DNA of 43,172 bases from Acidobacteriota bacterium (GTDB lineage: Bacteria; Acidobacteriota; UBA6911), in NCBI GenBank assembly GCA_013388445.1, contig JACADW010000255.1, positions 1 to 43,172 on the forward strand. Direction: 5' to 3'. Under the pieces are notes generated by a model. It did no database searches. It had not been told where the DNA came from and saw only the letters and a program-made list of their open reading frames with translations. This document shows, in pieces, positions 11,000-42,660 of the stretch. The position numbers and the translations under genes are program-made. Each line of letters starts with the position of its first letter. Position 1 is the stretch's first letter.

Positions 11000-11632
11000 A
11001 TGCAAGCTGACCTGATAAACTCAGCCCGGATCAACCGGCGTGATTTTCTGTCCGGCTGCGCCGGCATCGGAACGTTGGGAACGTTGCCTTCCATCACCAA
11101 CCTCGGCGGCGCTGAGCCGGAGGGTAACATCTACCCCGCGCTTGGCTAAAAGCGCATGAACCTGGACTACCATTTTTTCGAGTTCAAGCTGCACACGCTC
11201 GAGAGAGCCGGCTCCAAGCAGATCATCGAGGTCATGACCGACCTCGGCATCGATTCTCTCTGGCTCTGCAGCGAGGACCACTGGGGAGGGATGCAGCAGG
11301 TGTATGAACCGCAGGTCTGGGTCGATGCTCCGGATCGGGTCGGGGCCGTTTGCAGCCGGCGCGGGAACGAGATCCGGGTTGTGCTGATCCACGGCATCCA
11401 CAGCAAAGTGATCGCTGGCGACCCCTGGGGCGCTGAAGCCGCAAGACGCGGCCGCAGCACGCCTTCCAGCGTGGTCCCAGTCCGCGACCTGACCGTAAAG
11501 GTTCGGGGGCTCCGGGATGCGCGAGCGTCCGATTTGAAAGGGATGAGGTTGAAGACGAGCCACAGCGGCGCAGTGACGGCGATCTCCGTGCCGGCGGTCG
11601 ATCAATACGAACTCGTGCGGATACGCCGGTAA
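11000..11632 (+). pseudogene. Internally deleted Tat-exported GHL6-like hydrolase
   Basis: Tat signal NRRDFL, in-frame TAA 11147-11149, then RMNLDYH...GIDSLWLCSEDHWG (GHL6-like N-terminus) joined directly to a C-terminal beta domain (VPVRDLTVKV...VPAVDQYELV). Confidence 0.6.
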
Positions 11633-25700: not shown

Positions 25701-25899
25701 CCCGTTTCGCCGGCTTGTCGGCCGCCGGATATCGGAAAACGATGGTATCCGCGGATCAGCCGTCGTCCCGCAACCTGTCCGCAACCTCCAGGCACGCCGA
25801 CATTGTGCATCTGAGGGCCAGCATCCGCTTGCGCGGAGGGCCGCCGCCCCATAGACTCGCTCTTCATCACCGCAAATGAAATGTCCGGGAGGATCTGCC

Positions 25900-28800
25900 A
25901 TGAAACGAAGCCCTTGGGCAGCGCTTCTGATCTTGTTAAACATGACAGTCTGTCTCCGCGCCCAGCAGGCGACGGTCCAGGAGGAAAAGAGGGTCTTCAA
26001 GACCTATCCCTTCTCCGGACCCGATCCGGCCCCCATCATGACGAGATCCAGCATATGGGGCAAAGGTCCGAGGCTCTATCCATACTTCTTCTTCGACAAA
26101 CTCAGCTATTCGGGCACGGACCAGCCCTGGGAAGTCGTGCGAATGGAAAACCCCTACATCCAGGTGTTCGTCCTGCCGGCTGAGGGAGGCAAGCTGCTCG
26201 GCGCCGTCGAAAAGAGCACGCAGAAGCAGTTCATTTACTTCAACCACGCCCGCAAGTTCCGGCAAATCGCCCTGCGCGGGCCCTGGACATCCGGAGGCAT
26301 CGAGCTGAACTTCGGCATCGTCGGCCACACGCCGGCGACGGCCACACCGGTCGATTACCTCTTCCGCAACAACCCGGACGGGAGCGTGAGCTGTTTTGTC
26401 GGGGCCCTGGACCTTCCCTCCCGAACTCAATGGCGGGTTGAGTTCATCCTGCCCCCCGACAAGGCTTATTTCGAATCCCGCGCGCTCTGGTACAACCCGC
26501 AACCCCTCAACCAGTCCTATTACGTCTGGATGAACGCCGCGAACAAACTCAGCAAGGACCTCGAGTTCATTTTCCCCGGGACGATGTACATCGGGCACAA
26601 CTACGCCGTCCCGGAGCGTCCCTGGCCGATGAAGGAAGGCAGGAACTTGGCCCTCTACAAGGAACATGACGACAGCGACGAGGGGAGCTTCTTCATCCAT
26701 GGCGCCTTCAACGATTCCTCCGGCGGCTACTGGCACGATTCCCAGTTCGGCTACGGGCACTGGGCCTTTCACGAGGACGTGCCGGGGCAGAAGTTCTTCC
26801 GCTGGCCGCTCTCGCGCGCCGGGGCGATCTGGGAGAGCTTGCTGACCGACACCGACGGTCCGTACTTCGAGCCGCAGAACGGACGGCTCCTCGATCAGAA
26901 CGACCATGAGTTCTTCGCGCCCTACACCACGGACCGATGGCGCGAAGTGTGGTTCCCTTACAAGAAGATCGGCCCGATGGTGAAGGCGACGCCCTACGGA
27001 GCGCTCAATGCCCGGAACACGGACGACAAGGTCGTGATCGCTCTCTGCGCCCTGCAGAAGATCGACGAGGAGCTGGTGGTGCGCGCCGGCGCCAGGGAGA
27101 TCTACCGGGAGAAGCTGAAGCTCAAACCGATGGAGGTCTATGAGAAGAAGCTGGCGGCAACCGTGAAGAAGGGCGACCTCCGCGTCGACATCGGCGACAA
27201 GCTGTCCTACGCGGACGATCCCGCGGCGGAACTCCTGAAGCGCCCGCTGAATTTCCGCAACTACGAGGAGGACACCCTCGAAGGCCTCTACCAGAACGCG
27301 GAGCGCGAGGAAAAGGCGCGCAATTATGACCTCGCGCTCCAGAAATACCTCGAGTGCCTTAAGCGGGAGCCCATGCACATGCGTGCACTGACGAGGGTGG
27401 CCGAGCTCTACTGCCGCAGGGCCGAGTACGAGAAGGCGCTGGAGTATGCGTCCAGGGCGCTCGACTACGTCATGTACGACCCCGACGCGAACTACATTTA
27501 CGGCGTCATCGCGAGGCGGATGGGGAACCTCGTCGACGCCAAAGAGACCCTCGGCTGGGCGGCGTGATCGATGAAGTACCGCTCCAGCGCCAACTGCCAG
27601 CTCGGCGAGGTCTACATGATGGAGGGCAAGCCCGGCCGGGCGCTGGAATTCCTGCGGCGCGCGCTGGACTACGACGTGCACAGTATCAAGGCCCAGCAGG
27701 TGCTTGCCACCGCCTGTCGCCTGTTCAAGCAGCCGGACGATGCGAGGAAGGCCCTTAACCGGATCCTGGAAATCGATCCGCTCAACCATCTTGCCCGGTT
27801 TGAACACTATCTCCTCGAGCCGGAACCCCAAAAACTCGACGTCTTCAAGTCGCTCATCCGGAACGAGATCCCACACGAGACCTACCTCGAAATCGCGATG
27901 TACTACGTCAGCCTAGGCCTGGAGGAGGACGCGCTCCGCCTGCTGGAAGTGGCGCCGGAGCAGCCGGCCATCCGCTACTGGCAGGCGTATCTGTTGAGAG
28001 ACAGATTGCCGCAGCGGAGCCGCGAGATCTTGAGGAAGGCGTCGTCGCTTTCGCCGTACCTGGTCTTCCCCTTCCGCGGGGAATCGATCCCGGTCTTCCA
28101 GTGGGCCGACAGGTCGCTGCCGGGCGACTGGAAGGCGAAATACTACCTGGGCCTGATCTACTGGGGGCTCCGGAGGCAGGAGGACGCACTGAAGGCGCTC
28201 GCCGACTGCGGAGACCGACCGGACTTCGCGCCCGCATACATATGCCGCGCCTGGCTCGAGAGAGACTCCGACCCGAAGAAGGCGCTTGCGGATTTCGAGC
28301 GTGCCCACGCCGTGGACCCGAACGACTGGCGAAACTGGCGCCGCCTGGCCAACTTCTGCAGCGAGCAGGGCATGCACGAGCGGGCTATGACTCTCGCCGT
28401 GGAGGCTTCCCGGCGCTTCCCCGACGAGGACCTCATCAGGATCCTGCTGGCGAGGACGTACCTGAACAACGGCCGCTACCGGGACTGCTATACGGTGCTT
28501 GAGAAAGCGACCATCCTCCCCTTCGAAGGGCAGCGCGACGTGCATGACCTGTTCGTCCAGTGCCAGATCTGTCTGGCGATGGAAGCCATGAAGAAAGGCC
28601 GGTTCGGCGAAGCCATCCGGCATCTGGAAGATTCCAAGGAGTATCCGGAAAGGCTGGGGACGGGCAAGCCTCAAGACCCGGATTACAGGGTCCAGGACTA
28701 CTTGATGATGCTGGCCTATGGCGAGATGGGTGAGAGCGCCGGGGCGGAAGAAGCCCGCGGGCGGATCGCGGAATACGCGTCACGCAATCCACGGAGAGCG

Positions 28801-28923
28801 GCGGAGGGTTCTGAAGCCGCTGTGGACCAGTGGTACCGCATGAGCTTCAAGTCCCAGAGCGAGCTGGAGGCGCTCAGAGCGCTCACGCGGCTGGTCCAGG
28901 CCAGCAGGCCGAGGCGGAACTAG
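25900..28923 (+). pseudogene. DUF5107 + TPR protein split by one in-frame TGA
   Basis: GGAGG RBS, signal peptide, MENPYIQVFVLPAEGGKL, WTSGGIELNF. TGA 27565-27567 in LGWAA*SMKY, after which the same frame continues with TPRs to 28923. Confidence 0.85.
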
Positions 28924-30809: not shown

Positions 30810-31630
30810 ATGAGGGAGGGAAACACGACGAGTCGAATCCGTAACGTCGCTTTGATCTGCATGGTTTGCCTGCCGGGCTTTTCCGGGCTGCTGCTTTCCC
30901 AAAGCGCCTCGGCACTCTTTGAGCAGGGTCTGCTCAAGGAAAATGGTGAGGGAGACAGGAAGAGCCGCATGGGATGCACATCTGGACGCTTCCCGTCCTC
31001 GGAGGAACACCCCGGCAACTAACCGACGCTCCGGCGAGGTTTAGAGACTGGTATCCCTGCTGGTCAACGGACGGAGAGACCATCGCCTTTATGCGCTCGA
31101 CCTCGGGCGAGAATTGGGCAGAGGCCGGAGAGGGAAATATCTCTGTCGTGTCCGCCGACGGCTGCGAGCCAAGGCGGATCACCTCGGAATCAGACAGAAT
31201 TTTCGACGCGGCCCCTGTGATGTGGTCGCCGGACGGAAAGCTCCTGGCGTATTTCTCGAGAGATAAGCGCGACGCTCCCGATGGAACAATCAAGGTCATT
31301 CCGGCGACGGGCGGCGAACCGAGGATTGTGACCAAAGTCCGGGGCGCATTCGCCAATAAGGAGATGGCCTGGTCTCCGGGCAACCGGCGAATTGCCTACA
31401 ATGAGCTTCGCGGAGATACGACCAGAATCGTCTCCAATATGATCAAGGTTGTTTCCCTCGACGATGGAAGCACCGAAGAAATCGTGCCGGATCTGAAGGA
31501 CGTCAAGGAGATTTATCATCTCGATTGGTCGCCGGATGGCAAGACTCTCGTTTTCGCCGGCTATACCGGAGGCTGGCCGGAATTCTGGACCGTGGGGAAC
31601 TTCCTGCCGCTCGCGAGAACCGAGAGATAG
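30810..31630 (+). pseudogene. Internally deleted TPR/PD40 (TolB-like) protein
   Basis: Signal peptide plus SASALFEQGLLKENGEGD joined out of frame near 30956 to PD40 repeats (WSTDG, WSPDGK, WSPGN, WSPDGK). Confidence 0.75.
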
Positions 31631-31769: not shown

Positions 31770-33431
31770 CTATCGCGACGCCGCCTCCGGCAACCTTCGG
31801 TGGGCCGCGTCAAACCCGGCCACCGTTGCATCGTAGTCCGTGAATCCCCGGACCAACCGGGTACAGATCTCGTCGGCCAGCTTCGCGTCGCGCGCGGCGA
31901 CCAGCCGCAGCAGTTCGTAGTCTTCGATCCCCGCTCCCATCGCCTCGAAGCGGACGCTCGACCAGGGCCCGTCCTTTCCGGGATACAGGATGTGCGAATC
32001 GCCCGGCGGAAGATGGAAATAGCGGTACGGCCCGTGCGGCGGGCAGGTGTCCTCGAACGGGTTCTGTTCGGGGATGACTTGGTTCAATCCCCAGTGCAGG
32101 TAACCTTCGAGCCGGTAGCGCCAGTTCGCCCAGTGCAGTAGTCGGGTGCGGAGAAGCTCCGTGTCGATGAAACGGTTCAAATGGCGGCCGCTCGGAGCGC
32201 AACAGGTATAGAACCAGATCACATCGCCGCGGCGCCGGTGCGCTTCGAACGCCTCTCTCTCTTGCTCGTAGCTTTCGCTCAGCGGCACCCAGATATCGAC
32301 CGCACCATCGAGTTCGGGATTCCCCAGCGCGTCGATCAGCGGGATACCCGGCAGGAACTTGCGCACCGTCCCTGCCATGATGCGGTAGGCGTCGAAATCC
32401 TTCGGCGAGGGCTCGTCGACGACGTGCTGGGTTGCGAGGCCGTACCAGCCGTTGCGGCGCAGCAGATCGGCCCAGGCGCGCAGGTACTGCGCCAGGTACT
32501 CGTACGCCTCATGCGACGTGCCGGACACCGGCTTCCCGTCGATGCTTACCACAAATCGTGCCACCGCATCCCGCCTCCGGTCGTGCCCGGCGATATGCGG
32601 AAGCTCGATGTTGGTGAATCCCTCGCTGAGGAACATTCGAATCATCCGCTCGGTTCTCGAAAAGTCGAACTCCCAGACCCCCGGACCGGTGTTCTTGATT
32701 TCAGGCCTGACGGGGATGAAGTCGGTCTGGCGCCCGCGGCGCATCATGCGGGCATACTTCAGGAGAAGGTTCCAGTGCTCCTCCGACCAGGGCTCAACCC
32801 CATGAAGGCGCGCCATGTGGCCGGTGCTGAACCAGTTCGTCACCCTCAGATGGCCTCTTTCAGGGACGCGGGCGGCATAAACCTTCAGCACGACCGCGAT
32901 GTCGGAGGTCCCGCTGCCGGTTTGGACTCGGAGGCGCCCGCCGTGTTGTCCCGGCGCGGCATCCGCCGGAATCCTGAAAGACACATAAAGTGCGTCGGTG
33001 CTGCCACGGGCCGGCTCGCCGCGGCGCAGTGGGCGAAGGGCCTCGAACACGCGGTAGGGGGCCTTCCGGATCACGTAGTCGGGCGTCGGCCTGTCCGGCG
33101 GGATCGCGCTGCACGGCGGGCCGGAGTTTTCCGGGACCCGGACGTCGACAAGCTGGTAAAGCTCCGGAGCGACGCGGCCCTCGTATCTGCAGGTTATGGG
33201 CTCACCCGCCTTCAGGCCGCGCAGGAGTACTTGAAATCCCGTGCGGCCGCCCCGTGCCGCGTGAAGATCGGCCGAGCGGACGGGCGAAGCCGGGATGGGA
33301 GTGTCCGGATAAAGCCACTCATTGGCGCTCACGACATGAAGCTGAATGGATTGCGCGAAGCCGCAAATGCTTATGCAGAACAGAGCAGCGGCCAACAGCA
33401 GACATCCGGAAAACAGGCGGCAACAAGTCAT
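31770..33431 (-). CDS. DUF4091 domain protein (GH123-like glycoside hydrolase)
   Basis: GGAGG RBS, signal peptide, VTNWF, VVDEP, WFYTCC, GYLHWGLN, PGDSHILYPG, SSVRFEAMGAGIEDYELL. Confidence 0.85.
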   Translation of the reverse strand: MTCCRLFSGCLLLAAALFCISICGFAQSIQLHVVSANEWLYPDTPIPASPVRSADLHAARGGRTGFQVLLRGLKAGEPITCRYEGRVAPELYQLVDVRVPENSGPPCSAIPPDRPTPDYVIRKAPYRVFEALRPLRRGEPARGSTDALYVSFRIPADAAPGQHGGRLRVQTGSGTSDIAVVLKVYAARVPERGHLRVTNWFSTGHMARLHGVEPWSEEHWNLLLKYARMMRRGRQTDFIPVRPEIKNTGPGVWEFDFSRTERMIRMFLSEGFTNIELPHIAGHDRRRDAVARFVVSIDGKPVSGTSHEAYEYLAQYLRAWADLLRRNGWYGLATQHVVDEPSPKDFDAYRIMAGTVRKFLPGIPLIDALGNPELDGAVDIWVPLSESYEQEREAFEAHRRRGDVIWFYTCCAPSGRHLNRFIDTELLRTRLLHWANWRYRLEGYLHWGLNQVIPEQNPFEDTCPPHGPYRYFHLPPGDSHILYPGKDGPWSSVRFEAMGAGIEDYELLRLVAARDAKLADEICTRLVRGFTDYDATVAGFDAAHRRLPEAASR

Positions 33432-33499
33432 AGTGTCCTCCGTCATTCGGGGCGGGATAGTAATGCGGATCGGGCCCAATCTCAAGCCGGTCCGTCCGC

Positions 33500-33727
33500 G
33501 GCGCAGCCGACGTGCGGGACTGGATTGCCGGCTGCGAGGCGCTCCCGTTTCTCCGCTTTGTGCCGGTCGACAACGCCATTTTCGCACGTTCTGTTTTCCT
33601 GCCCGGTCTCTTCCACCCAGATCCGGCGCACCGGATCATCACGGCGACCGCCCTCATGAGGGATATTCCCATCGTCACGAAGGACCAGAGAATCCGAAAC
33701 TATCCGGGAGTCCAGTCCGTCCGGTAA
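33500..33727 (+). pseudogene. C-terminal relic of a PIN/VapC toxin
   Basis: LPFLRFVPVDNAIF...HPDPAHRIITATA...IVTKDQRIRNY. N-terminal DT motif missing and conserved DPAD changed to DPAH. Confidence 0.75.
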
Positions 33728-33851
33728 GTACCGGATGGCGGACCGAGCGATTGTCCATAATGACGGACCAGGGCCGCCGCACGCGATGAGCAGGCGGACC
33801 TGATGTGCGCCTGCGATCCCGGGGGAACGCCCGACGACGGGGCAAGGGGCC

Positions 33852-35414
33852 TTAGACTTCCGCGCCGTAGGAAATCTGCATGCGGCGGACGGCAATGGAG
33901 GAGAGCCACAGCACCAGGGCTGTAACCGCAAGCAGGCCGAGGATGGCTCCGACGCGCGAGGCCGGAGCGGCCGGAGCGAGCAGCAGTTGAACGAGCGGAG
34001 GCGCCTCCTTGTCCATGGGCGCGGGCACCGGGCACAACGACTGCAGGTAATACAGCACGCTCAGCTTCTGCAGCATCTGGGGGAGGAATCCGTTGATGCT
34101 CTCCCACCCGAGCAGCAACGCCGCAGGAATGATCGGATTGCGGAGCAGCAAACCGGCGGCGAGAAAAACGCTCCCGTATCCGACGCACCCGAGCACTGCC
34201 GCAATGGCATACCAGAAGACGTGCGTCATTCCCGCGCCCTCCCAGTAGGCCTGCACCTCGGCGGGATCGTGCGGCCAGATCATCACCGCGAAGCACAACA
34301 GGGCGCCGCCCGCAAAGATCGCGGTCGAGGCGATCAGTCCGGCGCCGAACTTCCCGGCGAGTAGCACTTCGCGCCTGGCGGGAGCGAGCAGCCAGAAATG
34401 CAGGGTCCTGTCGAGCATCTCGCCCCGGAATAGGTTCATGAAAATGCCGAGGCAGCCGAAGAAGATTGCCAGCCGCAGATAGAAATACTGGAACACCCCG
34501 GCGAAGACCTGCCGGTCCTCTTCGAAATCCAGCAGAGGGCGGACCTGTTTCGACACGAGTCTGCCGTCCTCGAAGCGAAGGTACGCCTGGCGCCGCCCGT
34601 CAAAATAGACGAGCATGCGGTAGGAGGTCCGTTCCTCCACGAATCGGGCTCCTGTTACGTTCACGACGGTCGTGAACATCTTGCCGTCTTTACTCACCTG
34701 GATGTTGAATTCCCGGGTGTCCCACTCCTCGTCCTCCCCGCCGGCGCCCGCATGTTTCAACACAAAACGCCTCACCCGCAAGATCGAGCCGAGATCCACC
34801 TGGAGGAAGGCGTTCCATGTCTCATGTGTACACCACTTGTCGCTGCGGCCGCCGGAGACGCTGCCGTTGAAAGCCTTCTCCGGCCCCTCCTCGGGAGTGC
34901 ATGGATCACTCCCCGTCGCGGGCCGCTTGAGGGCGAGATTTGCCGTCCCATCAGGGCCGTAGACCTCGAACTCGTAAATCCTCGCCGTCGGCTCGCCGCT
35001 GTAGACCGGCCGGGTGATGTTCAGCCGCACATAGCGCGCCTCCGTTGCCGGCTCGATCGCGTGGGACGTGACGCTGGCGGATTCGCCGTCGGCGCGGACG
35101 CGCTTGCGCCTTTCCCATTTCTGGTCGTCAGCCGGCCGGCCGAGGCGTTCGAGCACGTCTTCGACAGTCTCGCCTTTGCTGACACGGTCGACCAGCGCCG
35201 CCGGAGTGAGGCCGCCTGCGGACAGGCGGTTGCGGCGGACCTTCACCTCGACGCCGTGACCCAGGAAGATCAGCGACGGGAGCAGCGCCAGCCCGTACAC
35301 CCAGAATCCGCGTTTCGAGAGGAACGCGCGACGCAACTCGATTCTGGCGATGGTCCATGCCTGCTTCAGAGGACCGGGGGGCCGGGGGCCGGAGCCTGGG
35401 GAATCATGAATCAT
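33852..35414 (-). CDS. ABC-2-type permease with inserted SmpA/BamE-like and discoidin (F5/8 type C) domains
   Basis: TM1 near the N-terminus, large extracytoplasmic insert, then FRGEMLDRTLHFWLLAPARREVLLAGKF and several TM helices. Confidence 0.88.
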   Translation of the reverse strand: MIHDSPGSGPRPPGPLKQAWTIARIELRRAFLSKRGFWVYGLALLPSLIFLGHGVEVKVRRNRLSAGGLTPAALVDRVSKGETVEDVLERLGRPADDQKWERRKRVRADGESASVTSHAIEPATEARYVRLNITRPVYSGEPTARIYEFEVYGPDGTANLALKRPATGSDPCTPEEGPEKAFNGSVSGGRSDKWCTHETWNAFLQVDLGSILRVRRFVLKHAGAGGEDEEWDTREFNIQVSKDGKMFTTVVNVTGARFVEERTSYRMLVYFDGRRQAYLRFEDGRLVSKQVRPLLDFEEDRQVFAGVFQYFYLRLAIFFGCLGIFMNLFRGEMLDRTLHFWLLAPARREVLLAGKFGAGLIASTAIFAGGALLCFAVMIWPHDPAEVQAYWEGAGMTHVFWYAIAAVLGCVGYGSVFLAAGLLLRNPIIPAALLLGWESINGFLPQMLQKLSVLYYLQSLCPVPAPMDKEAPPLVQLLLAPAAPASRVGAILGLLAVTALVLWLSSIAVRRMQISYGAEV

Positions 35415-35752
35415 GGCAGCCACCTTCCGAGGCGCCCCGATGCGCCCGAGAATGTCTCACAGGGGCGCAGCGTCGTCCAAATGCAGATAGCGATCTCATG
35501 ATCTCCGCTCCGAAAATCGGATGCCAAGCGGGCATGGGCGGCCGAGTAGGCACCCGCGGCCGGATGGCGCCAGTAGGCTCCGACTGCCAGACGGGGCCAA
35601 GATCGGCAGGACCTCAGCTTGGCCCCTTCCGGTCGCGCCTGGCACTCGCGACCTACTGCCGCGTCGGGCCGCCGCGGCCTACTCCGCCCGGGCATGCTTT
35701 CATGCGTCACCGGGCGCGTCACAGGCCCAGGAGTGGCTGCTCCGATCTTCAT
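35411..35752 (-). CDS. Hypothetical ORF spanning a long hairpin and coupled to the permease
   Basis: GGAGG 8 nt before ATG 35752; its TGA overlaps the permease ATG (ATGA). The protein has no recognisable motif. Confidence 0.35.
   Translation of the reverse strand: MKIGAATPGPVTRPVTHESMPGRSRPRRPDAAVGRECQARPEGAKLRSCRSWPRLAVGAYWRHPAAGAYSAAHARLASDFRSGDHEIAICIWTTLRPCETFSGASGRLGRWLP
35532..35697. repeat. ~165-nt imperfect inverted repeat
   Basis: Arms share GCATG, GAGTAGGC, GCGGCC, CAGTAGG and TGCCAG in inverted order; inner stem GGGGCCAAG/CTTGGCCCC. Confidence 0.8.
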
Positions 35753-35767
35753 AGTCATGGCCTCCGG

Positions 35768-36697
35768 CTACTTGCCTCCGATCAAATACTCGTACAGGGC
35801 ATCGACGTTCTCGTCGGCCGGAATGACTCCCTCGATCTTGTGACCGCCCAGGGCGATGCGGCTGAGAGCGCGCGAGAACTGCTCGCGGTCGCGGGTCATC
35901 ACGAGCAGTCCCTGCTGGTCCTCGTTGAGCCTGATCTCCGTGATGTGGTCTTCGTTGAACAGCAACGCGGCGATCCTCGACGCGTCGCGGCAGCGGAGGA
36001 TGAACTGGCTCGGATGCTCGTGTATCTCCTCCCGCACGTTGCGTATCTCGCCTTCGGCCACGATCATGCCGTTGGCGATGAGCACGACCTGGTCGCTGAT
36101 CACGTCGACCTCCTGCAGGACGTGGCTCGACAGGATCACATGCCTGCCCTGGGCGGCCCACGTGCGGAACAGGTCAATGGTCCGGGCGCGCACCAGCGGA
36201 TCGAGGCCATTGAGTGGTTCGTCGAGCACCAGGATCTCGGGGTCGTGGGCGATCGCCTGAGCCAGGCGCACGCGCTGCCTCATACCCTTGGAATAGGCGG
36301 CCACTTTCCGGTTTGCCGCGTCCGTCAGGCTCAGGCGCTCGAGGGCTTTCCAGGCTCTCTCCTCCGCCTCGGCACGGCCGTAGCCATGGAGGAGAAGGCT
36401 GGTGGTGACGAAACTGAAGCCGGTCGCCCAGCGCGGGGCTGCATCATACTGCGTCGCGTAGCCTGTGACGCGCATCAGGTGCTCCGGGTTGCGCGGTGAA
36501 ATACCCCGCACGCTGATCGAGCCATGGTCCGGGTGGATCAGGCCCGTCATCAGGTTCATGAGCGTCGTCTTGCCGCTTCCGTTCGGCCCGACGAGGCTGG
36601 TAATCCCCGGAGGAATGTTCAGAGTGACGCGGTTAACCCCTAGCACCTCGCCGTAGAATTTCGAGACCTCGTCGAAAACGACTGCGCGTGTGTTCAC
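35768..36697 (-). CDS. ABC transporter ATP-binding protein
   Basis: GPNGSGKT, YSKGMRQR, LVLDEP, SSH. Confidence 0.96.
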   Translation of the reverse strand: MNTRAVVFDEVSKFYGEVLGVNRVTLNIPPGITSLVGPNGSGKTTLMNLMTGLIHPDHGSISVRGISPRNPEHLMRVTGYATQYDAAPRWATGFSFVTTSLLLHGYGRAEAEERAWKALERLSLTDAANRKVAAYSKGMRQRVRLAQAIAHDPEILVLDEPLNGLDPLVRARTIDLFRTWAAQGRHVILSSHVLQEVDVISDQVVLIANGMIVAEGEIRNVREEIHEHPSQFILRCRDASRIAALLFNEDHITEIRLNEDQQGLLVMTRDREQFSRALSRIALGGHKIEGVIPADENVDALYEYLIGGK

Positions 36698-37554
36698 GTG
36701 ATCACCTCCACCGGGCGCAGCCTGCGTTCAAGCACGAGCGCGAGCAGCGCGATGAGGGCCGCGAGGACCGACGCACAGGCAGCCACGCCGGGCCCGTCCG
36801 GAGGATCGACGCCCAGCATCGCGCACCATACCCGGTAGATCGCCCACGCCGGGTTCAAGGCGTAACCCCAGGTCACCCGAAAGATGCCGTTGACCATCTC
36901 CGACACGCCGGCGAGGATGAAAAAGAAGCCGAGCACGAGCGCCCCCGCCACAACCTTCCACCGTACGTACGCGGAGCTCGCCAGCGACACGGTGCTGACC
37001 AGCGCCACCCAGACCGCGAAGCCGGCTGCCATGCCGGCGGCGATATCCCAGTTTGCCTGGAACCACACCGTACCGGCCATCCCCGCCTGCATCCCGAACA
37101 GCAGCAGTCCGGGGATCCAGGTGACAGCGGAAAGCACGCCTGCCAGGACCACGAACCGGGCCAGGACGTAGCCGGCCCGGGTCAGCGGGCGGCTGAAGTA
37201 AAGAGGCAGCGCGTTGTTCGCAAGATCGGGCGCGATCAGACCGGGGCCGGTCAGCGCCGCCAGGAAGATCGCGAACGCCGCCTGGACGTTCATGAATATG
37301 AGGAAGAATTTGCCGTTGGCCTCGATGAAACTCTGAAACTCGCGATCCAGTCCTTTCAGCAGGTCGGCGTGGTTCGCGAGGTAGATGAAGCCTGCGCAGA
37401 GCAGCGGCCAGATCATGGCGAGGACCATGAGCAGGACCACCAGGCGCTGGCGGAACAGGCGGCGCCAGGCAAATCGCGGCAGCACCATGAACCGGCTCCA
37501 CTGCCCCGTCATCCGTCCCTGATATCGATGGTAGCCCCGCCGGTAGACCGCCAC
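36694..37554 (-). CDS. ABC-2-type permease
   Basis: About six hydrophobic helices and DLANNALPLYFSRPLTRAGYVLARF. Confidence 0.9.
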   Translation of the reverse strand: MAVYRRGYHRYQGRMTGQWSRFMVLPRFAWRRLFRQRLVVLLMVLAMIWPLLCAGFIYLANHADLLKGLDREFQSFIEANGKFFLIFMNVQAAFAIFLAALTGPGLIAPDLANNALPLYFSRPLTRAGYVLARFVVLAGVLSAVTWIPGLLLFGMQAGMAGTVWFQANWDIAAGMAAGFAVWVALVSTVSLASSAYVRWKVVAGALVLGFFFILAGVSEMVNGIFRVTWGYALNPAWAIYRVWCAMLGVDPPDGPGVAACASVLAALIALLALVLERRLRPVEVIT

Positions 37555-37555
37555 G

Positions 37556-38533
37556 TTAATCTCCTATTGGTCCGGGTTCCGCGCCTTCGCCCGGCGTGTG
37601 GGATATGTGACCCATGGCCTTCAGGAAAATCTCCTCGAGAGTGTCGCGGCGGTGCGTGAGCTTTCGGACTAGCAGATTCTGCCGCGCCACGAGATCCCAT
37701 ATCGCCTGCACCTCGACGTTTGGCGGTAGGACGATGCGCCAGCGTCCATCGCCTTCGGTGACGCCGTCGGCGCCGATCTCCGGAAGCGCGCCGCGCAAGC
37801 GCTCGTCGTTCCCTGTGACTTCGAGTTCGACGAAACACCTGTTGGAGCGACGCTCCTCCTCCAGGTTGCAGCCGCGCGCGATCATACCGTCCTTGAGAAT
37901 CACGACTTCGTCGCACACCTGCTCGACATCGCGCAGCAGGTGAGAGCAGAGGAACACGTTCATCCCGTGTGCTTCCTTCATTTCGCGGACCAGCGCGAGC
38001 ATGCGCTGACGAGCGGCAGGGTCGAGGCCGTTGGTGGGTTCGTCGAGGAGCACCAGTTCCGGGCCGTGAACGATCGCCTGCGCGAGCTTGGCCATCTGCT
38101 TCATTCCCTGCGAGTAGGTTCGCAGTTCACGGTAGCGCGCTTCCCCAAGTCCCACGTGGAAAAGGGTCTCGTGGGCCTTCTCCAGGGCAGTCTCGCCCGG
38201 GAGGCCGGAAAGCTCGGCCATCAGGCGCAGGAAGGTGACCGCGGTCATGTTGCCGACGAACGAGTCCGTCTCGGGCATGTAGCCGATACGGGAGCGCACC
38301 TGGCGCGTCTGCCGTCGACAGTCGAAGCCGAGAACGTAAGCTCGTCCGGAAGAGGGCTTGAGGAATCCGAGCAGGGTAAGGATCAGCGTCGATTTGCCCG
38401 CCCCGTTCGGTCCAAGCAAACCTATGGCTTTTCCGACGCCCGAAACGCCGAGACGGCAGGAGATGCCTCGAAGGATCTTCCGCCGTCCCAGTTCGACTTT
38501 CAGGTTGTCCAGTTCGATGACAGCCGATGCCAT
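37556..38533 (-). CDS. ABC transporter ATP-binding protein
   Basis: GPNGAGKS, YSQGMKQ, LLDEPT, CSH. Confidence 0.96.
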   Translation of the reverse strand: MASAVIELDNLKVELGRRKILRGISCRLGVSGVGKAIGLLGPNGAGKSTLILTLLGFLKPSSGRAYVLGFDCRRQTRQVRSRIGYMPETDSFVGNMTAVTFLRLMAELSGLPGETALEKAHETLFHVGLGEARYRELRTYSQGMKQMAKLAQAIVHGPELVLLDEPTNGLDPAARQRMLALVREMKEAHGMNVFLCSHLLRDVEQVCDEVVILKDGMIARGCNLEEERRSNRCFVELEVTGNDERLRGALPEIGADGVTEGDGRWRIVLPPNVEVQAIWDLVARQNLLVRKLTHRRDTLEEIFLKAMGHISHTPGEGAEPGPIGD

Positions 38534-38555
38534 TCGGCGCCTTTCCCTCGCGTCC

Positions 38556-41018
38556 CTACTGAAGAGCCGCTGACGGCGGCCCCGCTCCCACCCGGCTCAG
38601 GCTCTCCAGCAGCATCATGTCTACGATCAATCCCGATATCCTAGTACGGCTCGCGGCGTGAATTTGTTCGGTCGCTCCGCCGAAAACCACGAGGATCGGG
38701 TCCCGCTCGGCGACCAGTTTCTGGATCGCCGGGCTCGGCACGAGCGAGGCAAGGCCCTCCAACGCACCCTTTGTGTTCAACCACACGAATCCCGAAGGGT
38801 GCAGCCCGGCGGAGGACGGCAATTGCTGTCGGAAGGCCGGCGACCAGACCAGGGCTGAGCCCCCATTGCGGTTCGCAATGGCGCGCAGTACCACGCCCCG
38901 GTCGGATGCCGCCACCAGGTAGCCTCGATCATAGGTCCAGGTGATAGCCAGCGGGAACTGGCCCGACTTCAGCGTGGTCCAGCCCCGTCCGTCTTGGGTT
39001 TCCTGCTCCAGCGTGAGGCGCCTGGCCTGCTGGTCTTCCGGCAACTCGGCATTGAACACCTCCACCAACCTTCGGACTGAACCGTCGAGAGTGGCCGGGT
39101 CGTTCACAAGCGCGGCGACGACCCACACCGGGCCCGTCGCCGACAGGCCTTCCAGGGCAAACGCCGACTCGGTACCGAGCGCAGAAGCGAGATCACTGGC
39201 AAAACCTGGACCGAGTTTTGACTCCGCTTCCGCAAATCCCCCACCGGATGCGGGATCGATCTTCGCGAGATGGGCGGTCAGCTCGTCGAACAACTGGCGC
39301 GGCTCGCGCGTGGAGACGTAGACCGAAAAAGCGGCATCGCTCGAAAGATACTCGGCCGCGCCCCCGGAACCCGAGCTGGCAAGCCACGACGCCATCCCCA
39401 TGCGCGGACCTTTGAAGGTGAGCGTTACCTCGTTCTCTTCGAAGCCCTGAATGTCGCGTTGCTCAAGGAACAGGTGTTTCATTTGCCGGGCGCCCAGCAA
39501 CTCAGATCCAGCAGGTTCGCCAGTAGCTTCGGGCATTGCCGCGAATGCCAATTCCGTGTCCATCCCCAGCAGCCAACCGGCGCCGCGCTGGTAGCGGGCG
39601 GCGATCGCTGCCGCGAACGGCGAGGCTGCGCCGTCGCCCATGTGCGCGAGCACCCATTGCAGGTGTTCTTGCGAATCGGAAGCGACCAGGAGCGACCCGG
39701 TCGCCGAGTAGGGCAAGGCCGGCAGATTCGCCTCGCCGCGCAGCGCCTCCACGGCGCTGTTCAGGGCGTCCTGCTTGCCCGGCTGCACTTCGGCGGCGAC
39801 CATCGGGATCTTCTCCCCCGTCGCTCCAGCGCCGGTCACAAGAACGAAAACGACCTCGTCGCCGAGCAGCGGTGTAAAGGTCTGGATTCGGTCGATGATC
39901 TGCTTCACTTCCTGACCGGCGGCGGAGTTCCACCATTCGCGGAAGACAGGGTTTTCGGCTGCCTGCTGTTCCGCGAGAGTCACGGCCTGGCTGATCGTTC
40001 CCCCGATGTTCGGAATAGCCCCATAGACGGCTGCGTTTGCCGGCATGTACTGGAGCAGACGAGGCTGCGTTCGCAGGGCCGGCGACGGCAGCCCGGCAAT
40101 CTCCTTCTCGAGCTTTCCGAAGGACGCAAGCAGCGCCAGGTAATCCTCGACGTCGGAACTCCACGAGACCGCCTCCTCGACGGAATACGCGAGGACGGGG
40201 TTGGATGCGGCCTGCTCTCCGGGTTGCAGGAGAGTGTCGACGCCGGGCTGAGTGACCGCCACAGATCCTTCGATTACGGAGACGACCGTACCGGCGAGGC
40301 CTGAGGAAACGGCAAACACCGTTCCCTGCACCGCTGCAACCGAATCGCGGGTTTGCACGCGCAGCCGTCCACGGCGCTGCTTGGCCGCCTGGACGATGAC
40401 ATCTCCGCGTTCGAGTTGAATTGTCTGGCCGCTCCACGCGGCGCGCACAGACAGTTCCGTGCGCTCATTGATCTCGACCCGCGAGCCGTCGGCGAGGCGC
40501 AGCACGGCACGGGCTCCCGGTCCGGTGCGCACGACTTCGTCCTGGCCAATAGGGGAACCGGGCTGCAGCAATCCATCGGGCAGGCGGTACAGCGAGCCGC
40601 TGACGGATGCCACTGAAGCGCGTGGGCCGCCCGGCGCCAGCGTTGTGTCGATGCGATGGCGCCCGACATAGAGCGCCGCCAGCAGGATCGCGGCCGCCGC
40701 CGCCCATGCTCCCCACCTCGTCCACGCCGGCGCCCGGCGTTGCGGCATAGCCACGACCTTCCGCTCCCCCTTCAGCCCGGCGATCTCGTCACGGCACTGC
40801 GAACAACGGCCGAGGTGATCTTCGATCAGCAAGCGACGGTTAGCAGCCAGGCCGCCGTCCAAATAGTCGCGGTACTCCAGCCGGAACTCCGCACACGCAC
40901 TCAGGCCTGGATTTGCCAGCCTTGCCCGAACGCGATCCCGCGCGCCGGCGAGCTGCTCGGGGCTGGCACTTTCGTTTCTCATGGCTTCAAGGGCCTCTTC
41001 CAATCGATCTTCGGACAT
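38556..41018 (-). CDS. Anti-sigma factor: zf-HC2 + TM + FecR + large periplasmic domain
   Basis: C...HLGRCSQC ZAS motif, TM WAAAAAILLAAL, FecR motifs LADGSRVEINERTEL, VQGTVFAV, VSVIEGSVAV. Confidence 0.9.
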   Translation of the reverse strand: MSEDRLEEALEAMRNESASPEQLAGARDRVRARLANPGLSACAEFRLEYRDYLDGGLAANRRLLIEDHLGRCSQCRDEIAGLKGERKVVAMPQRRAPAWTRWGAWAAAAAILLAALYVGRHRIDTTLAPGGPRASVASVSGSLYRLPDGLLQPGSPIGQDEVVRTGPGARAVLRLADGSRVEINERTELSVRAAWSGQTIQLERGDVIVQAAKQRRGRLRVQTRDSVAAVQGTVFAVSSGLAGTVVSVIEGSVAVTQPGVDTLLQPGEQAASNPVLAYSVEEAVSWSSDVEDYLALLASFGKLEKEIAGLPSPALRTQPRLLQYMPANAAVYGAIPNIGGTISQAVTLAEQQAAENPVFREWWNSAAGQEVKQIIDRIQTFTPLLGDEVVFVLVTGAGATGEKIPMVAAEVQPGKQDALNSAVEALRGEANLPALPYSATGSLLVASDSQEHLQWVLAHMGDGAASPFAAAIAARYQRGAGWLLGMDTELAFAAMPEATGEPAGSELLGARQMKHLFLEQRDIQGFEENEVTLTFKGPRMGMASWLASSGSGGAAEYLSSDAAFSVYVSTREPRQLFDELTAHLAKIDPASGGGFAEAESKLGPGFASDLASALGTESAFALEGLSATGPVWVVAALVNDPATLDGSVRRLVEVFNAELPEDQQARRLTLEQETQDGRGWTTLKSGQFPLAITWTYDRGYLVAASDRGVVLRAIANRNGGSALVWSPAFRQQLPSSAGLHPSGFVWLNTKGALEGLASLVPSPAIQKLVAERDPILVVFGGATEQIHAASRTRISGLIVDMMLLESLSRVGAGPPSAALQ

Positions 41019-41032
41019 CGCCGACCTCCAGT

Positions 41033-41551
41033 CTATCGCTCCATCTCGGCCTGCAACGCTTGTCGCAGTCGGTGCAGCCGGACAGCAACATGGTTCTTTT
41101 CCAAGCCGAACAATTCGGCCAGTTCGCCGTTGGACAATCCCTCGACGTAGCGCAGGACGAACAGTACGGCATCGTTCTCCTGCAGCGTGGCCAAGGCGCG
41201 GCGCAGACGCTCCTTGAGCAGCGCCGGACGCTCGGCGGAAGTCAGCAGCGACGCGTCTTCGAGCTGCGACTCCGCGTGTACCGCCCTGCGGCGGAGCAGG
41301 TCCAGGGCAGCGTTGGCCGCCGCGCGCCTGAGATAGGCGCCGGGCATACGCGGGGGTTCCAGGCGGCCGCTCCGGCCGAGGACGCGGAGAAACACGGTCT
41401 GCAGCACATCCTCGGCGTCGGCCGGATTCCCGGTAACGCGCAGGGCTGTACGATAGACCGCGGCGTAATGCCGTTCGTACAACTCGGCAAACTCAGTTGG
41501 CGAGGTCATGAAGATGCATTGCGCGTCAAGTGCGTCGCTGGCCGTTCCCAT
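41033..41551 (-). CDS. ECF RNA polymerase sigma factor
   Basis: DAEDVLQTVFL, YLRRAAANAALD, LRYVEGLSNGELA...VRLHR. Confidence 0.95.
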   Translation of the reverse strand: MGTASDALDAQCIFMTSPTEFAELYERHYAAVYRTALRVTGNPADAEDVLQTVFLRVLGRSGRLEPPRMPGAYLRRAAANAALDLLRRRAVHAESQLEDASLLTSAERPALLKERLRRALATLQENDAVLFVLRYVEGLSNGELAELFGLEKNHVAVRLHRLRQALQAEMER

Positions 41552-41571
41552 ATCCGGTCGCCTCAACCACA

Positions 41572-41598
41572 AGACGCGCGAGCGCAGCAATTATTACA
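41572..41598 (-). promoter_or_regulatory. Putative autoregulatory ECF promoter
   Basis: TGTAAT-N16-CGTCT on the minus strand, 20 nt upstream of ATG 41551. Confidence 0.7.
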
Positions 41599-41962
41599 GC
41601 TTAGAGCTTAGGGGTCGGACCGGGACAAGTCTAGTGTTATGAGAAGTTAGAGAAAATTCAGGGCACAGAATGGGCTTAGAGCAGGATTTAGCCCTGTTTT
41701 TTTGATTTTGCCGCCCGCTTCTTTCGGAGCTTCGCCTCTTGAAATCCTCGCGCGCCATCCCCTTCATTCACAGGTGCGGATTCATCATACGCGCGGGGAT
41801 TCGAGAACTCAGGATCCTGAATTCAAGATGTTATTGAGACGCTCTCGCAGCAGCGGATCACGATCATCCGACAGCTTGGATCGCTGAGCGCCGCAATGGA
41901 GAAGCGGATTGTCGTAACGACGTCCAGAGCGGTCCTGCGCTTCAAAGACACGGCTGCATGCG

Positions 41963-42660
41963 CTATCTCTTCACCAGGGACGGAAAGTCCTCCATCAGCC
42001 ACAGATCCAAGTCTCCGCCAGTGGGTACGTTGAACGCGATGGTCTTGCCGTCGGGAGAGAGTGCGAACAGCAGAATGTTGCCGTCCACATCGGTCTTTAT
42101 TGCCTCGGGCTCTCCCCCGGCGGTGGAGACAGTCCACAGCATGCCCTTTGCGGTATATATCAGCCGGGACCCGTCCGGCGTCCAGGCAAGCGATCCCTGA
42201 TGGCTCTCGAGCACATCGGCCTTCAGCACGGTGCGGGGTTCGCCTCCGGTGGCAGGAATGATTCTGATCGTCTTGTGCGAGCATGCGCAGGCGATCGAGT
42301 CTCCCCGGGGAGACCAGGCTTCGAGTTCGCAGAAGCAATCGGTGTGATATGTGAGCTGTCGGGGCTCCCCTCCTTTGGAGGATATGACAGAGATATTTTC
42401 GCCGAGCTTCCGCTCGCCCGGCACGTCTCTTTCGGATTCGAAAGCGATCCATTTGCCGCCCGGCGACCAGCGCGGTTGCCAGGCATTCAGATCGGCTGTC
42501 ATAGGCAGTTGGACCGGCTGCCCGCCTGTGATGGGCATTGTCCAGAGGCGGGCGCTGGCGACTCCCTCCCTGTAGCCTGAAAACACAATCCGCTTGCCAT
42601 CGGGCGAGATGTGTTTTCCGCCGCCCGGCAATGTCTCAAAGATTTTCTCTCCTTCCTGCG
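41963..42660 (-). pseudogene. C-terminal part of a PD40 (TolB-like) protein
   Basis: ISPDGK, WSPGGK, WSPRGD, WTPDGS, LSPDGK repeats; no signal peptide, joined to unrelated sequence upstream. Confidence 0.75.

Follow-up and report, generated by a model that had tools for sequence, protein, structure and literature searches.

Evidence for a Circularly Permuted Discoidin Module Nested in a Probable BamE-Like Loop Domain of an ABC-2 Permease from Acidobacteriota

Introduction

Permuted carbohydrate-binding modules (CBMs), domain insertion, and ATP-binding cassette (ABC) systems of the ABC-2 type with periplasmic partners are already known. Here, we describe a gene for an ABC-2 type (NosY-like) permease, located at positions 33852..35423 on the minus strand of a 43,172-nucleotide stretch of DNA from an Acidobacteriota bacterium (assembly GCA_013388445.1, contig JACADW010000255.1; the whole stretch is hereafter called the window). 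The loop between transmembrane helices 1 and 2 (TM1 and TM2) of its product very probably holds a discoidin (F5/8 type C, CBM32-like) module in circularly permuted order, nested in a second small domain. What is unusual is that one conserved family joins the use of a shifted one-period slice as a permuted domain, the nesting of this domain in another small domain, and the survival of close relatives of both parents.

The nearest relatives of the module are tandem discoidin arrays, which belong to the same sequence subfamily (49–60% identity) and share with it the motifs NLAL..PA, DKWC, HAGAGGE, RYVRLN, and IYE.EVY, as well as the same Cys pair. However, the domains of these arrays are in normal order, head-to-tail, and on soluble enzymes, whereas here the repeat period is shifted and lies inside a domain of a membrane permease. 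Among solved structures, the best sequence match is the CBM32 of the Streptococcus pneumoniae endo-β-N-acetylglucosaminidase D (EndoD; PDB 2xqx); it shares the HAGAGGE loop, but it has the normal order and is an appendage of a GH85 (glycoside hydrolase family 85) enzyme. Natural circular permutation between β-sandwich module families, namely CBM36 and CBM60, was reportedly described by Montanier et al. in 2010 in J Biol Chem and explained by tandem duplication. These modules belong to another fold family, are free-standing appended modules, and are not known to involve a nested insertion. Extant close tandem relatives (>50% identity) spanning the cut, such as the permease module has, are not known for CBM36/CBM60 either.

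The closest solved fold for the transmembrane part of the permease is NosY of NosDFY (PDB 7o0y_D, 7o0z_D, and 7qba_D), although its identity to the window permease is 16–18%, with E values of about 5e-3. NosY is not known to have a nested BamE-like or discoidin loop domain, and its periplasmic partner NosD is a separate protein. The domain that hosts the discoidin module resembles the BamE/SmpA_OmlA family (PF04355; 5wam_A, 9cmw_E, and 2pxg_A) in its G-M-S/T..V...LG.P signature and its helix-helix-strand order. It differs from this family in being a loop of an inner-membrane permease, in having an extra strand and a 145-residue interruption, and in scoring below the family thresholds. A β-sandwich glycan-binding module fused to an ABC-2 transporter component is found in the Wzt ATPase of O-antigen ABC-2 exporters. 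This module lies at the C-terminus of a cytoplasmic ATPase and is not known to be permuted, nested, or related in sequence to the permease module. Neither a permuted discoidin/CBM32 domain nor an ABC permease with a discoidin domain was the subject of any paper found in our literature search. A survey describes domain insertion as common and mentions neither discoidin, BamE, nor ABC transporters (PMC13114784).

Overall Architecture of the Permease

Counted from its GTG, the open reading frame encodes 523 residues. Public records of the permease start at residue 4, i.e., at the ATG at 35414, and give 520 residues; this ATG is likely the true start. The N-terminal helix and TM1 (residues 18–69, 35217..35372) are modeled by AlphaFold2 (AF2) as helices 18–35 and 37–69, with predicted local distance difference test (pLDDT) values above 90. 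Transmembrane helices 2–6 (residues 298–523, 33855..34532) comprise the AF2 helices from residue 300 on and account for the Foldseek matches to NosY and to ABCG-like proteins. The preliminary description, made from the letters of the window, had singled out positions 34545–35192. These correspond to residues 78–293, i.e., to the loop between TM1 and TM2, and the strings that it had quoted from this loop were recovered where it had placed them (residues 83–97, 118–156, 162–258, and 273–289).

The loop consists of five consecutive parts, all encoded on the minus strand like the rest of the gene. The first part of the host domain (residues 70–113, 35085..35216) contains two short helices (75–79 and 87–94 in the AF2 model) and strand β1 (99–110), and its G-x-T...LG-x-P stretch occupies residues 83–97. 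It is followed by segment A of the discoidin module (residues 114–156, 34956..35084), which represents the last third of the canonical fold but comes first in sequence; it was delimited with PF00754, 2xqx, and the C-terminal ends of tandem domains, and its portion from residue 118 to residue 156 (34956–35072) closes with ...EVYG. A linker of only five residues (157–161, 34941..34955) leads from the old C-terminus to the old N-terminus and is the counterpart of the inter-domain linker of tandem arrays. Segment B (residues 162–258, 34650..34940), delimited with PF00754, PF22633, and 2xqx, represents the first two-thirds of the canonical fold; it opens with NLAL, contains HAGAGGE, and closes with ...NVTG. 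Finally, the second part of the host domain (residues 259–297, 34533..34649) adds three β-strands (261–274, 278–285, and 288–296), including the YFDG...FEDGRL stretch at residues 273–289.

The assignment of the transmembrane part draws on profiles and on structure comparison. The Pfam profile ABC2_membrane_2 gives the window permease 22 bits, under its cut-off of 27.2, and this cut-off is passed by the orthologues P0124 (30.7 bits), P0127 (36.5 bits), and P0148 (32.1 bits). With the full permease model, Foldseek recovered the NosY chains at a probability of 1.00 and with TM-scores relative to the target (TMt) of 0.49–0.53 (0.52 for 7o0y_D), at an E value of only about 5e-3. The transmembrane domain also matched ABCG2 and ABCG5/8 at probabilities of 0.99–1.00, with weak E values (5e-3 upward). 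A scan of NCBIfam found no family for the permease. Generally, the TM1–TM2 loop of ABC-2/NosY-type permeases faces the periplasm. The discoidin module would thus be periplasmic, a location that fits its invariant Cys pair, as the periplasm is an oxidizing compartment. Taking the architecture together with the origin discussed below, we have high confidence in the explanation as a whole: the gene product is an inner-membrane ABC-2 permease of the NosY-like fold, whose TM1–TM2 loop is made of two nested modules.

Reversed Order of the Discoidin Module

Searched against the whole permease, the discoidin profile PF00754 (F5_F8_type_C) scored 55.6 bits (cut-off 28.2; E 7.7e-15) in two stretches, and PF22633 (F5_F8_type_C_2) scored 54.2 bits (cut-off 27.8). 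The order of the stretches became apparent with fragments of the loop. In the fragment of residues 94–159, residues 99–142 align to positions 73–117 of the 127 positions of PF00754 (E 0.0014, 19.1 bits), while in the fragment of residues 160–269, residues 169–255 align to positions 2–82 of the same profile (E 2.4e-11) and to positions 1–69 of PF22633. A collinear N-to-C match to PF00754 was not obtained; the part corresponding to positions 73–117 precedes the part corresponding to positions 2–82. The same swap was observed with a solved structure. The best phmmer match in the PDB, 2xqx_A (E 7.2e-5), is aligned in two exchanged pieces, with chain residues 25–89 corresponding to residues 120–183 of the loop fragment and chain residues 95–149 to residues 42–97. 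Such split matches in exchanged order are what the preliminary description, which had claimed a reversed discoidin domain, had expected of a hidden Markov model scan, and this claim is borne out.

The observation is well beyond chance because blastp also matches the module to tandem discoidin proteins in contiguous stretches (E 5e-51 to 1e-41), as described below. The alignment to tandem arrays shows that residues 114–258 hold the equivalent of one complete domain, with each core element present once. Two swapped segments, a single coverage of the domain, and extant tandem relatives that align across the cut, i.e., the marks of a natural permutant, are all found here. It is therefore strongly supported that these 145 residues are a circular permutant of the F5/8 type C/CBM32-like family and not a canonical member of it.

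Predicted Structure of the Loop

The AF2 model of the full-length permease, built from a 67-row alignment, has a mean pLDDT of 92.4 and a predicted template modeling score of 0.79, with values of about 93–98 in the blocks of the insert. The loop alone (residues 58–300), modeled from a 51-row alignment, reached a pLDDT of 93.3. The preliminary description had treated it as decisive whether the two halves form one β-sandwich. When residues 160–258 and residues 113–159 were given as separate chains, the predicted pairing scored 0.92, while the best of three controls scored 0.01, so that the models speak for a single sandwich built from both halves. In this two-piece test, 58 of 80 solved complexes and 2 of 110 mismatched pairs attained the mark used, counts that are rough because the alignment was self-made. 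Three runs agreed in at least 96% of the contacts, which number about 247, and the pLDDT of the partner was at least 84. In the predicted contacts, strand 130–134 pairs with residues 207–211 and 241–244, strand 150–154 pairs with residues 220–223, and residue 154 touches residues 163–164. These pairings are typical of one sandwich, in which the old N-terminus (163–164) lies against the old C-terminal strand (154).

Comparison of the loop model with known structures by Foldseek gave a sole high-probability match (1.00), 6eon, with a TM-score relative to the query (TMq) of 0.44 over 157 columns; ordinary CBM32 entries were not recovered. As Foldseek is an order-dependent comparison and an ordinary, confidently modeled discoidin domain should recover many such entries, their absence fits an altered strand order, although it is not proof by itself. 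In the ESM Atlas, residues 113–260 fell among generic F5/8 type C clusters, with a score of 0.94. Collectively, the split matches, the coverage of one full repeat period, the confident models, and the predicted interdigitation of the two pieces uphold the claim of circular permutation.

The modeled strand directions bear on the orientation of the module. Strand 238–244 leaves the HAGAGGE loop and strand 251–257 returns to it; similarly, strand 118–126 leaves, strand 129–138 returns, and strand 147–155 heads again for the old termini. These directions agree with the antiparallel contacts of the two-piece test. According to the models, one end of the sandwich would bring together the new termini, the HAGAGGE loop, and the loop of residues 139–146, with the old termini at the opposite end. 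In discoidin/CBM32 domains, the ligand site is located at the HAGAGGE-loop end of the sandwich. The canonical binding face would therefore be next to the host domain, near the permease.

Origin from Tandem Discoidin Arrays

A search of 1.84 billion representative sequences returned 1924 matches, 150 of which were listed. Many long proteins among the representatives listed match the query at about residues 113–258 in one contiguous stretch. Pfam identified in these long relatives discoidin domains of normal order, covering profile positions of about 2–126 in single stretches and arranged as head-to-tail repeats. The carriers of such tandem arrays include GH92 mannosidases, a subtilase, CBM6 proteins, and DUF1080/PA14 proteins (e.g., P0142, P0135, P0131, and P0286). 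In a blastp comparison, residues 114–258 of the permease align with residues 507–650 of P0142 at 57.5% identity over 146 columns, with three gaps (E 5e-51). This stretch of P0142 comprises the last third of one domain, the linker, and the first two-thirds of the domain that follows. Separate matches in P0142 were obtained for each half as well, residues 162–246 matching 410–494 and residues 109–155 matching 646–691.

A junction-spanning match was found in all nine tandem proteins tested. It was the best-ranking high-scoring segment pair for P0142, P0131, P0135, P0126, P0149, P0208, P0172, and P0128 and the second best for P0220, and MAFFT likewise laid P0172, P0208, and P0220 contiguously over the insert. 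Over these junctions, residues 114–258 are 49–60% identical in contiguous alignments. The start of the insert is the turn that reads ...VTG-NTA-SVT.H... in the arrays, and its end is ...NVTG. The insert thus equals exactly one repeat period in shifted phase, with no part doubled or lost. A search limited to proteins of 917–2615 residues gave 326 proteins with E ≤ 1e-10; the 120 of these that were listed are 39–60% identical over 80–100% of the 146 residues, and most have GH92 domains. The named sources of tandem relatives are mostly Micromonosporaceae, with one Roseiflexaceae, and the proteins are GH92 α-mannosidases or "discoidin domain-containing" proteins. By tblastn, the window contains no second discoidin gene that could have served as a local donor.

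These contiguous alignments over domain junctions support the origin put forward in the preliminary description, i.e., from a slice across the junction of two tandem repeats. To judge from the sequences, the route could be either the direct capture of one shifted period or the insertion of two copies that were then trimmed. Most likely, a junction-spanning slice of an array (or two copies, later trimmed) would have been fixed in frame in the permease loop, the cut lying at the turn between ...VTG and SVT.H..., and this fixation would have taken place once, early in a clade of Acidobacteriota. The permuted domain, the insert-less host, and the tandem relatives of normal order (49–60% identity) are all extant, which makes this family an unusually clear natural record of the formation of a circular permutant. 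Since all three survive, the position of the cut is defined with single-residue precision.

Host Domain and Nesting

Orthologous permeases without the insert have about 340–376 residues (e.g., P0124, 58% identity), and further relatives of about 275–290 residues have no loop domain at all. In a joint alignment, the insert-less orthologues show a gap exactly over residues of about 113–262 and keep the flanks as one small domain, with the G-M-S/T..V...LG.P signature, a basic strand, and a Y.DG....F..G motif. The loop between the first two strands of this host domain varies in length among the insert-less orthologues. P0136 (574 residues) carries a different insert of roughly 220 residues (about 110–330) in the same hairpin, which has no Pfam match, and P0193 has a Pro/Ala-rich stretch there. 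Because the length of the hairpin loop varies and these two proteins hold other inserts, the hairpin is a tolerated insertion site, and it looks like a hot spot of accretion. In P0148, the domain is followed by an acidic extension of low complexity. For protein engineering, the permease offers a natural template for grafting a β-sandwich binding module into a hairpin by permutation.

In the AF2 model, the host domain is composed of two helices and a strand before the insert and three strands after it. This agrees with the BamE arrangement of two helices followed by a three-stranded sheet, with one strand more than in the BamE topology. Among the 14 insert-less orthologues, five match PF04355 (best E 1.6e-4), below the cut-off where scores were shown; P0124, for example, scored 18.4 bits against a cut-off of 23.2. 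A profile of the insert-less orthologues searched against the PDB with hmmsearch aligned over nearly the whole domain with three BamE/OmlA chains, at E values of 0.28, 0.48, and 1.7. With hhalign, the same profile matched a shallow enterobacterial BamE profile at a probability of 47% (E 1.9e-4) over 72 columns, covering BamE residues 30–110. A relationship of the α-α-β...β-β-β host domain (residues 70–113 and 259–297) to BamE/SmpA_OmlA is probable. The domain forms the loop of an inner-membrane permease and is not an outer-membrane lipoprotein of the BAM (β-barrel assembly machinery) complex, so that it does not count as a BamE orthologue. Of the nested SmpA/BamE domain that had been proposed in the preliminary description, the nesting thus stands, since insert-less orthologues keep the flanks as one domain, whereas the homology to BamE is only probable, the window protein itself having no PF04355 match.

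Conservation and Authenticity of the Insert

Among 8000 scored candidates, 3545 homologues had E values ≤ 0.001. The 120 family members listed all match PF00754, have lengths of 472–562 residues, and, apart from the permease's own record, are 67–78% identical to it. In their sources, they are named "discoidin domain-containing protein", "hypothetical protein", or "multi-copper enzyme maturation permease subunit"; the rearrangement is hidden by standard annotation with such generic names. In a collection of one genome per species, a relative is encoded in 433 genome stretches. Locus counts given here and below are based on the best 80 of these 433, all of which come from metagenome-assembled genomes (MAGs) of Acidobacteriota (Terriglobia, Vicinamibacterales, Solibacteraceae, and unclassified). 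The insert is present in all 80 loci, some of them on contigs longer than 1 Mb, so that its conservation, proposed as a check in the preliminary description, is confirmed for this family.

Conservation is uneven along the protein. In 22 aligned family members, the module segments share on average about 70% of their residues with the window protein, compared with 51% and 62% for the two host parts, 48% for the linker, and 80% for TM2–6; the linker is thus the least conserved stretch of the loop, and TM2–6 is the most conserved region of the protein. The HAGAGGE, DxWC, and R-V-R-L-N motifs are invariant in these members. Cys175 and Cys198 are found in all 22 and also in the tandem-array relatives, but not in the aligned part of the EndoD CBM32, a distribution that suggests a subgroup-specific disulfide. 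The GC content is even over the region (0.63–0.67).

In two of the MAG loci, L079 (8229–8767) and L080 (8227–8768), tblastn matches the loop region in several pieces that overlap or adjoin, which suggests frameshifts or assembly errors in these records. In L010, short second matches to the module (62–64% identity, about 32 residues each) occur at 11432–11631, about 2 kb downstream of the permease, and may be a fragment of another discoidin gene.

The Six-Gene Cluster

The permease is the last gene of a cluster on the minus strand. In the order of the cluster, the first gene (41033..41590) encodes an extracytoplasmic function (ECF) sigma factor of 185 residues (Sigma70_r2, E 8.1e-16; Sigma70_r4_2, E 4.9e-11). 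It is followed by an anti-sigma factor of 820 residues (38556..41018), in which Pfam identified zf-HC2 and FecR domains; its large C-terminal region is DUF3352-like. Its structural neighbors in the Atlas are DUF3352/FecR/zf-HC2 proteins, most commonly from Acidobacteriota. Next come a DrrA-like ABC ATPase of 325 residues (ATPase 1, 37556..38533; PF00005, E 2.7e-26; TIGR01188, E 4.6e-61, below its cut-off) and a second ABC-2 permease of 286 residues without a large loop domain (36694..37554), which has weak matches to ABC2_membrane_2 and ABC2_membrane_5. A second ABC ATPase of 309 residues (ATPase 2, 35768..36697; PF00005, E 4.7e-28) lies immediately upstream of the discoidin permease. The two ATPases are 39% identical, and blastp found no significant similarity between the two permeases. 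Pfam scans of the cluster genes did not find nos genes.

This organization is conserved. The full order of six genes, with strand, was found in 58 of the 60 loci whose upstream flank reaches at least 6.1 kb, the other two lacking only the sigma match, and ATPase 2 is directly upstream of the discoidin permease in all 71 loci with at least 1 kb of flank. No conserved neighbors were found beyond the six genes in the 80 loci, the largest downstream cluster comprising 11 loci and the largest upstream cluster seven. The cluster is thus a conserved, uncharacterized, ECF-sigma-linked ABC system in Acidobacteriota, a dominant but poorly understood soil phylum. The available part of an ECF classification describes no group that matches the cluster (PMC7826278).

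Proposed Function and Alternative Explanations

We tentatively propose that the module serves an ATP-driven ABC-2 machine as its periplasmic head for glycan binding. The expression of this machine would be set by the adjacent ECF sigma/anti-sigma pair. The machine would be built from the two ATPases and the two permeases of the cluster, and the module would capture or sense a periplasmic glycan for it. The ligand may be mannose-containing or N-glycan-like because the nearest relatives of the module are on GH92 enzymes and the nearest solved relative is on EndoD, an N-glycan enzyme. The binding face would be against the host domain, near the periplasmic mouth of the permease; such a face-down end would therefore suit the hand-over or sensing of a substrate and not an outward reach. 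A lectin-type head on a periplasmic loop also offers a handle for finding what the system recognizes, and the loop can be expressed alone.

Several points weigh against the explanation given here. Segment A alone is marginal against generic profiles (E 0.0014 with Pfam; 5.2 bits against 2xqx), and Foldseek found no match in the PDB at E ≤ 0.001 with either the full or the loop model. The pass in the two-piece test may reflect the predictor's memory of discoidin folds, and it indicates likeness of fold, not stability of the protein. The homology of the host domain to BamE is below threshold in every sequence comparison, PF04355 giving no match to the window permease or to the loop fragments even at E ≤ 10. 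As modeled, the canonical binding end lies directly against the host domain, which could block access to it, and no conserved glycan-related gene stands beside the cluster in the 80 loci. The weak Pfam score of segment A and the lack of a strong Foldseek match in the PDB would also suit the view that the loop is a relic, in which the discoidin-like pieces derive from two different domains by decay and form no functional domain. This view is very improbable, as the module, at about 70% identity, is conserved above the host domain, its core residues and its Cys pair are invariant in the aligned family members, the insert is present in all 80 loci, and the models are confident, with the pieces predicted to pack through about 247 contacts (0.92, against 0.01 for the best control). 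Likewise, nothing other than the unusual domain order speaks for an assembly or binning chimera of this contig, which the preliminary description had named among the findings that would overturn its claim; a chimera is ruled out by thousands of independent homologues and by 80 of 80 insert-bearing loci from separate MAGs, and the GC content is even, so that its probability is practically nil. A more substantial alternative concerns the route by which the same architecture arose: one normal-order copy or two tandem copies could have been inserted in the hairpin, with duplication and loss of the outer partial copies following in situ. Permutation by duplication is the classical route, the contiguous alignment over tandem junctions is equally predicted by both routes, and intermediates could be hidden, as 120 of the 3545 family matches and 150 of the 1924 representatives were listed. 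Yet no permease with a normal-order or a double insert was seen among the 120 family members listed, the 150 representatives listed, or the 80 loci, and the borders of the insert mark one exact period without remnants. We regard the in situ route as possible, but rather less than probable, and favor the fixation of a junction-spanning slice.

With regard to function, the main alternative is that the module is folded and permuted without being a lectin. It could instead provide a surface for protein docking or lipid contact, e.g., by linking the ABC machine with the FecR/DUF3352 anti-sigma factor or with a partner in the envelope. The closest analogue of the transmembrane domain is NosY, which works with a periplasmic partner, NosD, that docks on it, and in coagulation factors, membranes are bound by the discoidin C domains. 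The canonical ligand end appears from the models to face the host domain, the cluster always has an anti-sigma factor with a large periplasmic part, and a conserved glycan-related gene is absent from its vicinity. Against this, HAGAGGE, DxWC, and R-V-R-L-N are common to the CBM32 modules of carbohydrate enzymes and are invariant in the 22 members, and glycoside hydrolases or other secreted enzymes carry all of the nearest relatives as appendages. We therefore consider a docking role unlikely, though well short of negligible, and retain the glycan-binding head as a working proposal. A bolder form of this proposal, which we put forward as speculation of low probability, is that the six-gene cluster is an undescribed periplasmic glycan-sensing device of Acidobacteriota. 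In such a device, which would resemble the flux-sensing Bce-type transporters except that it would be linked to an ECF system, the permuted CBM32 head and the BamE-like host would form a composite site for a mannose-containing or N-glycan-like oligosaccharide, and ATP-driven movements of the permease would report occupancy or flux to the FecR/DUF3352 anti-sigma factor, which would free the ECF sigma factor. If this were true, the permutation would have allowed the ligand-loop end of a lectin to be grafted face-down on a transporter.

Genomic Surroundings

A gene for a GH123-like glycoside hydrolase (31770–33587, minus strand; PF13320, E 1.2e-48) lies directly downstream of the permease. A functional link to it was dropped because none of the 80 related loci carries this gene, which is probably outside the system. 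On the plus strand, the sequences 25876–28923 and 30974–31630, which lie upstream of the region, encode a DUF5107 and TPR protein (E 5e-103), a TPR-repeat protein, and a PD40/WD40-like β-propeller fragment, for which no link to the permease was seen. Rfam gave no matches over the whole window, and a promoter and terminator scan of 33400–42000 remained at chance level. A sigma-70-like match (9 of 12) at 35527–35498 is likewise at the chance level for the region. It falls between the genes for ATPase 2 and the permease, in an intergenic gap of about 345 bp (35424–35767). The size of this gap varies among the loci: the two genes nearly abut in many Vicinamibacterales loci and are separated by about 700 bp in L013.

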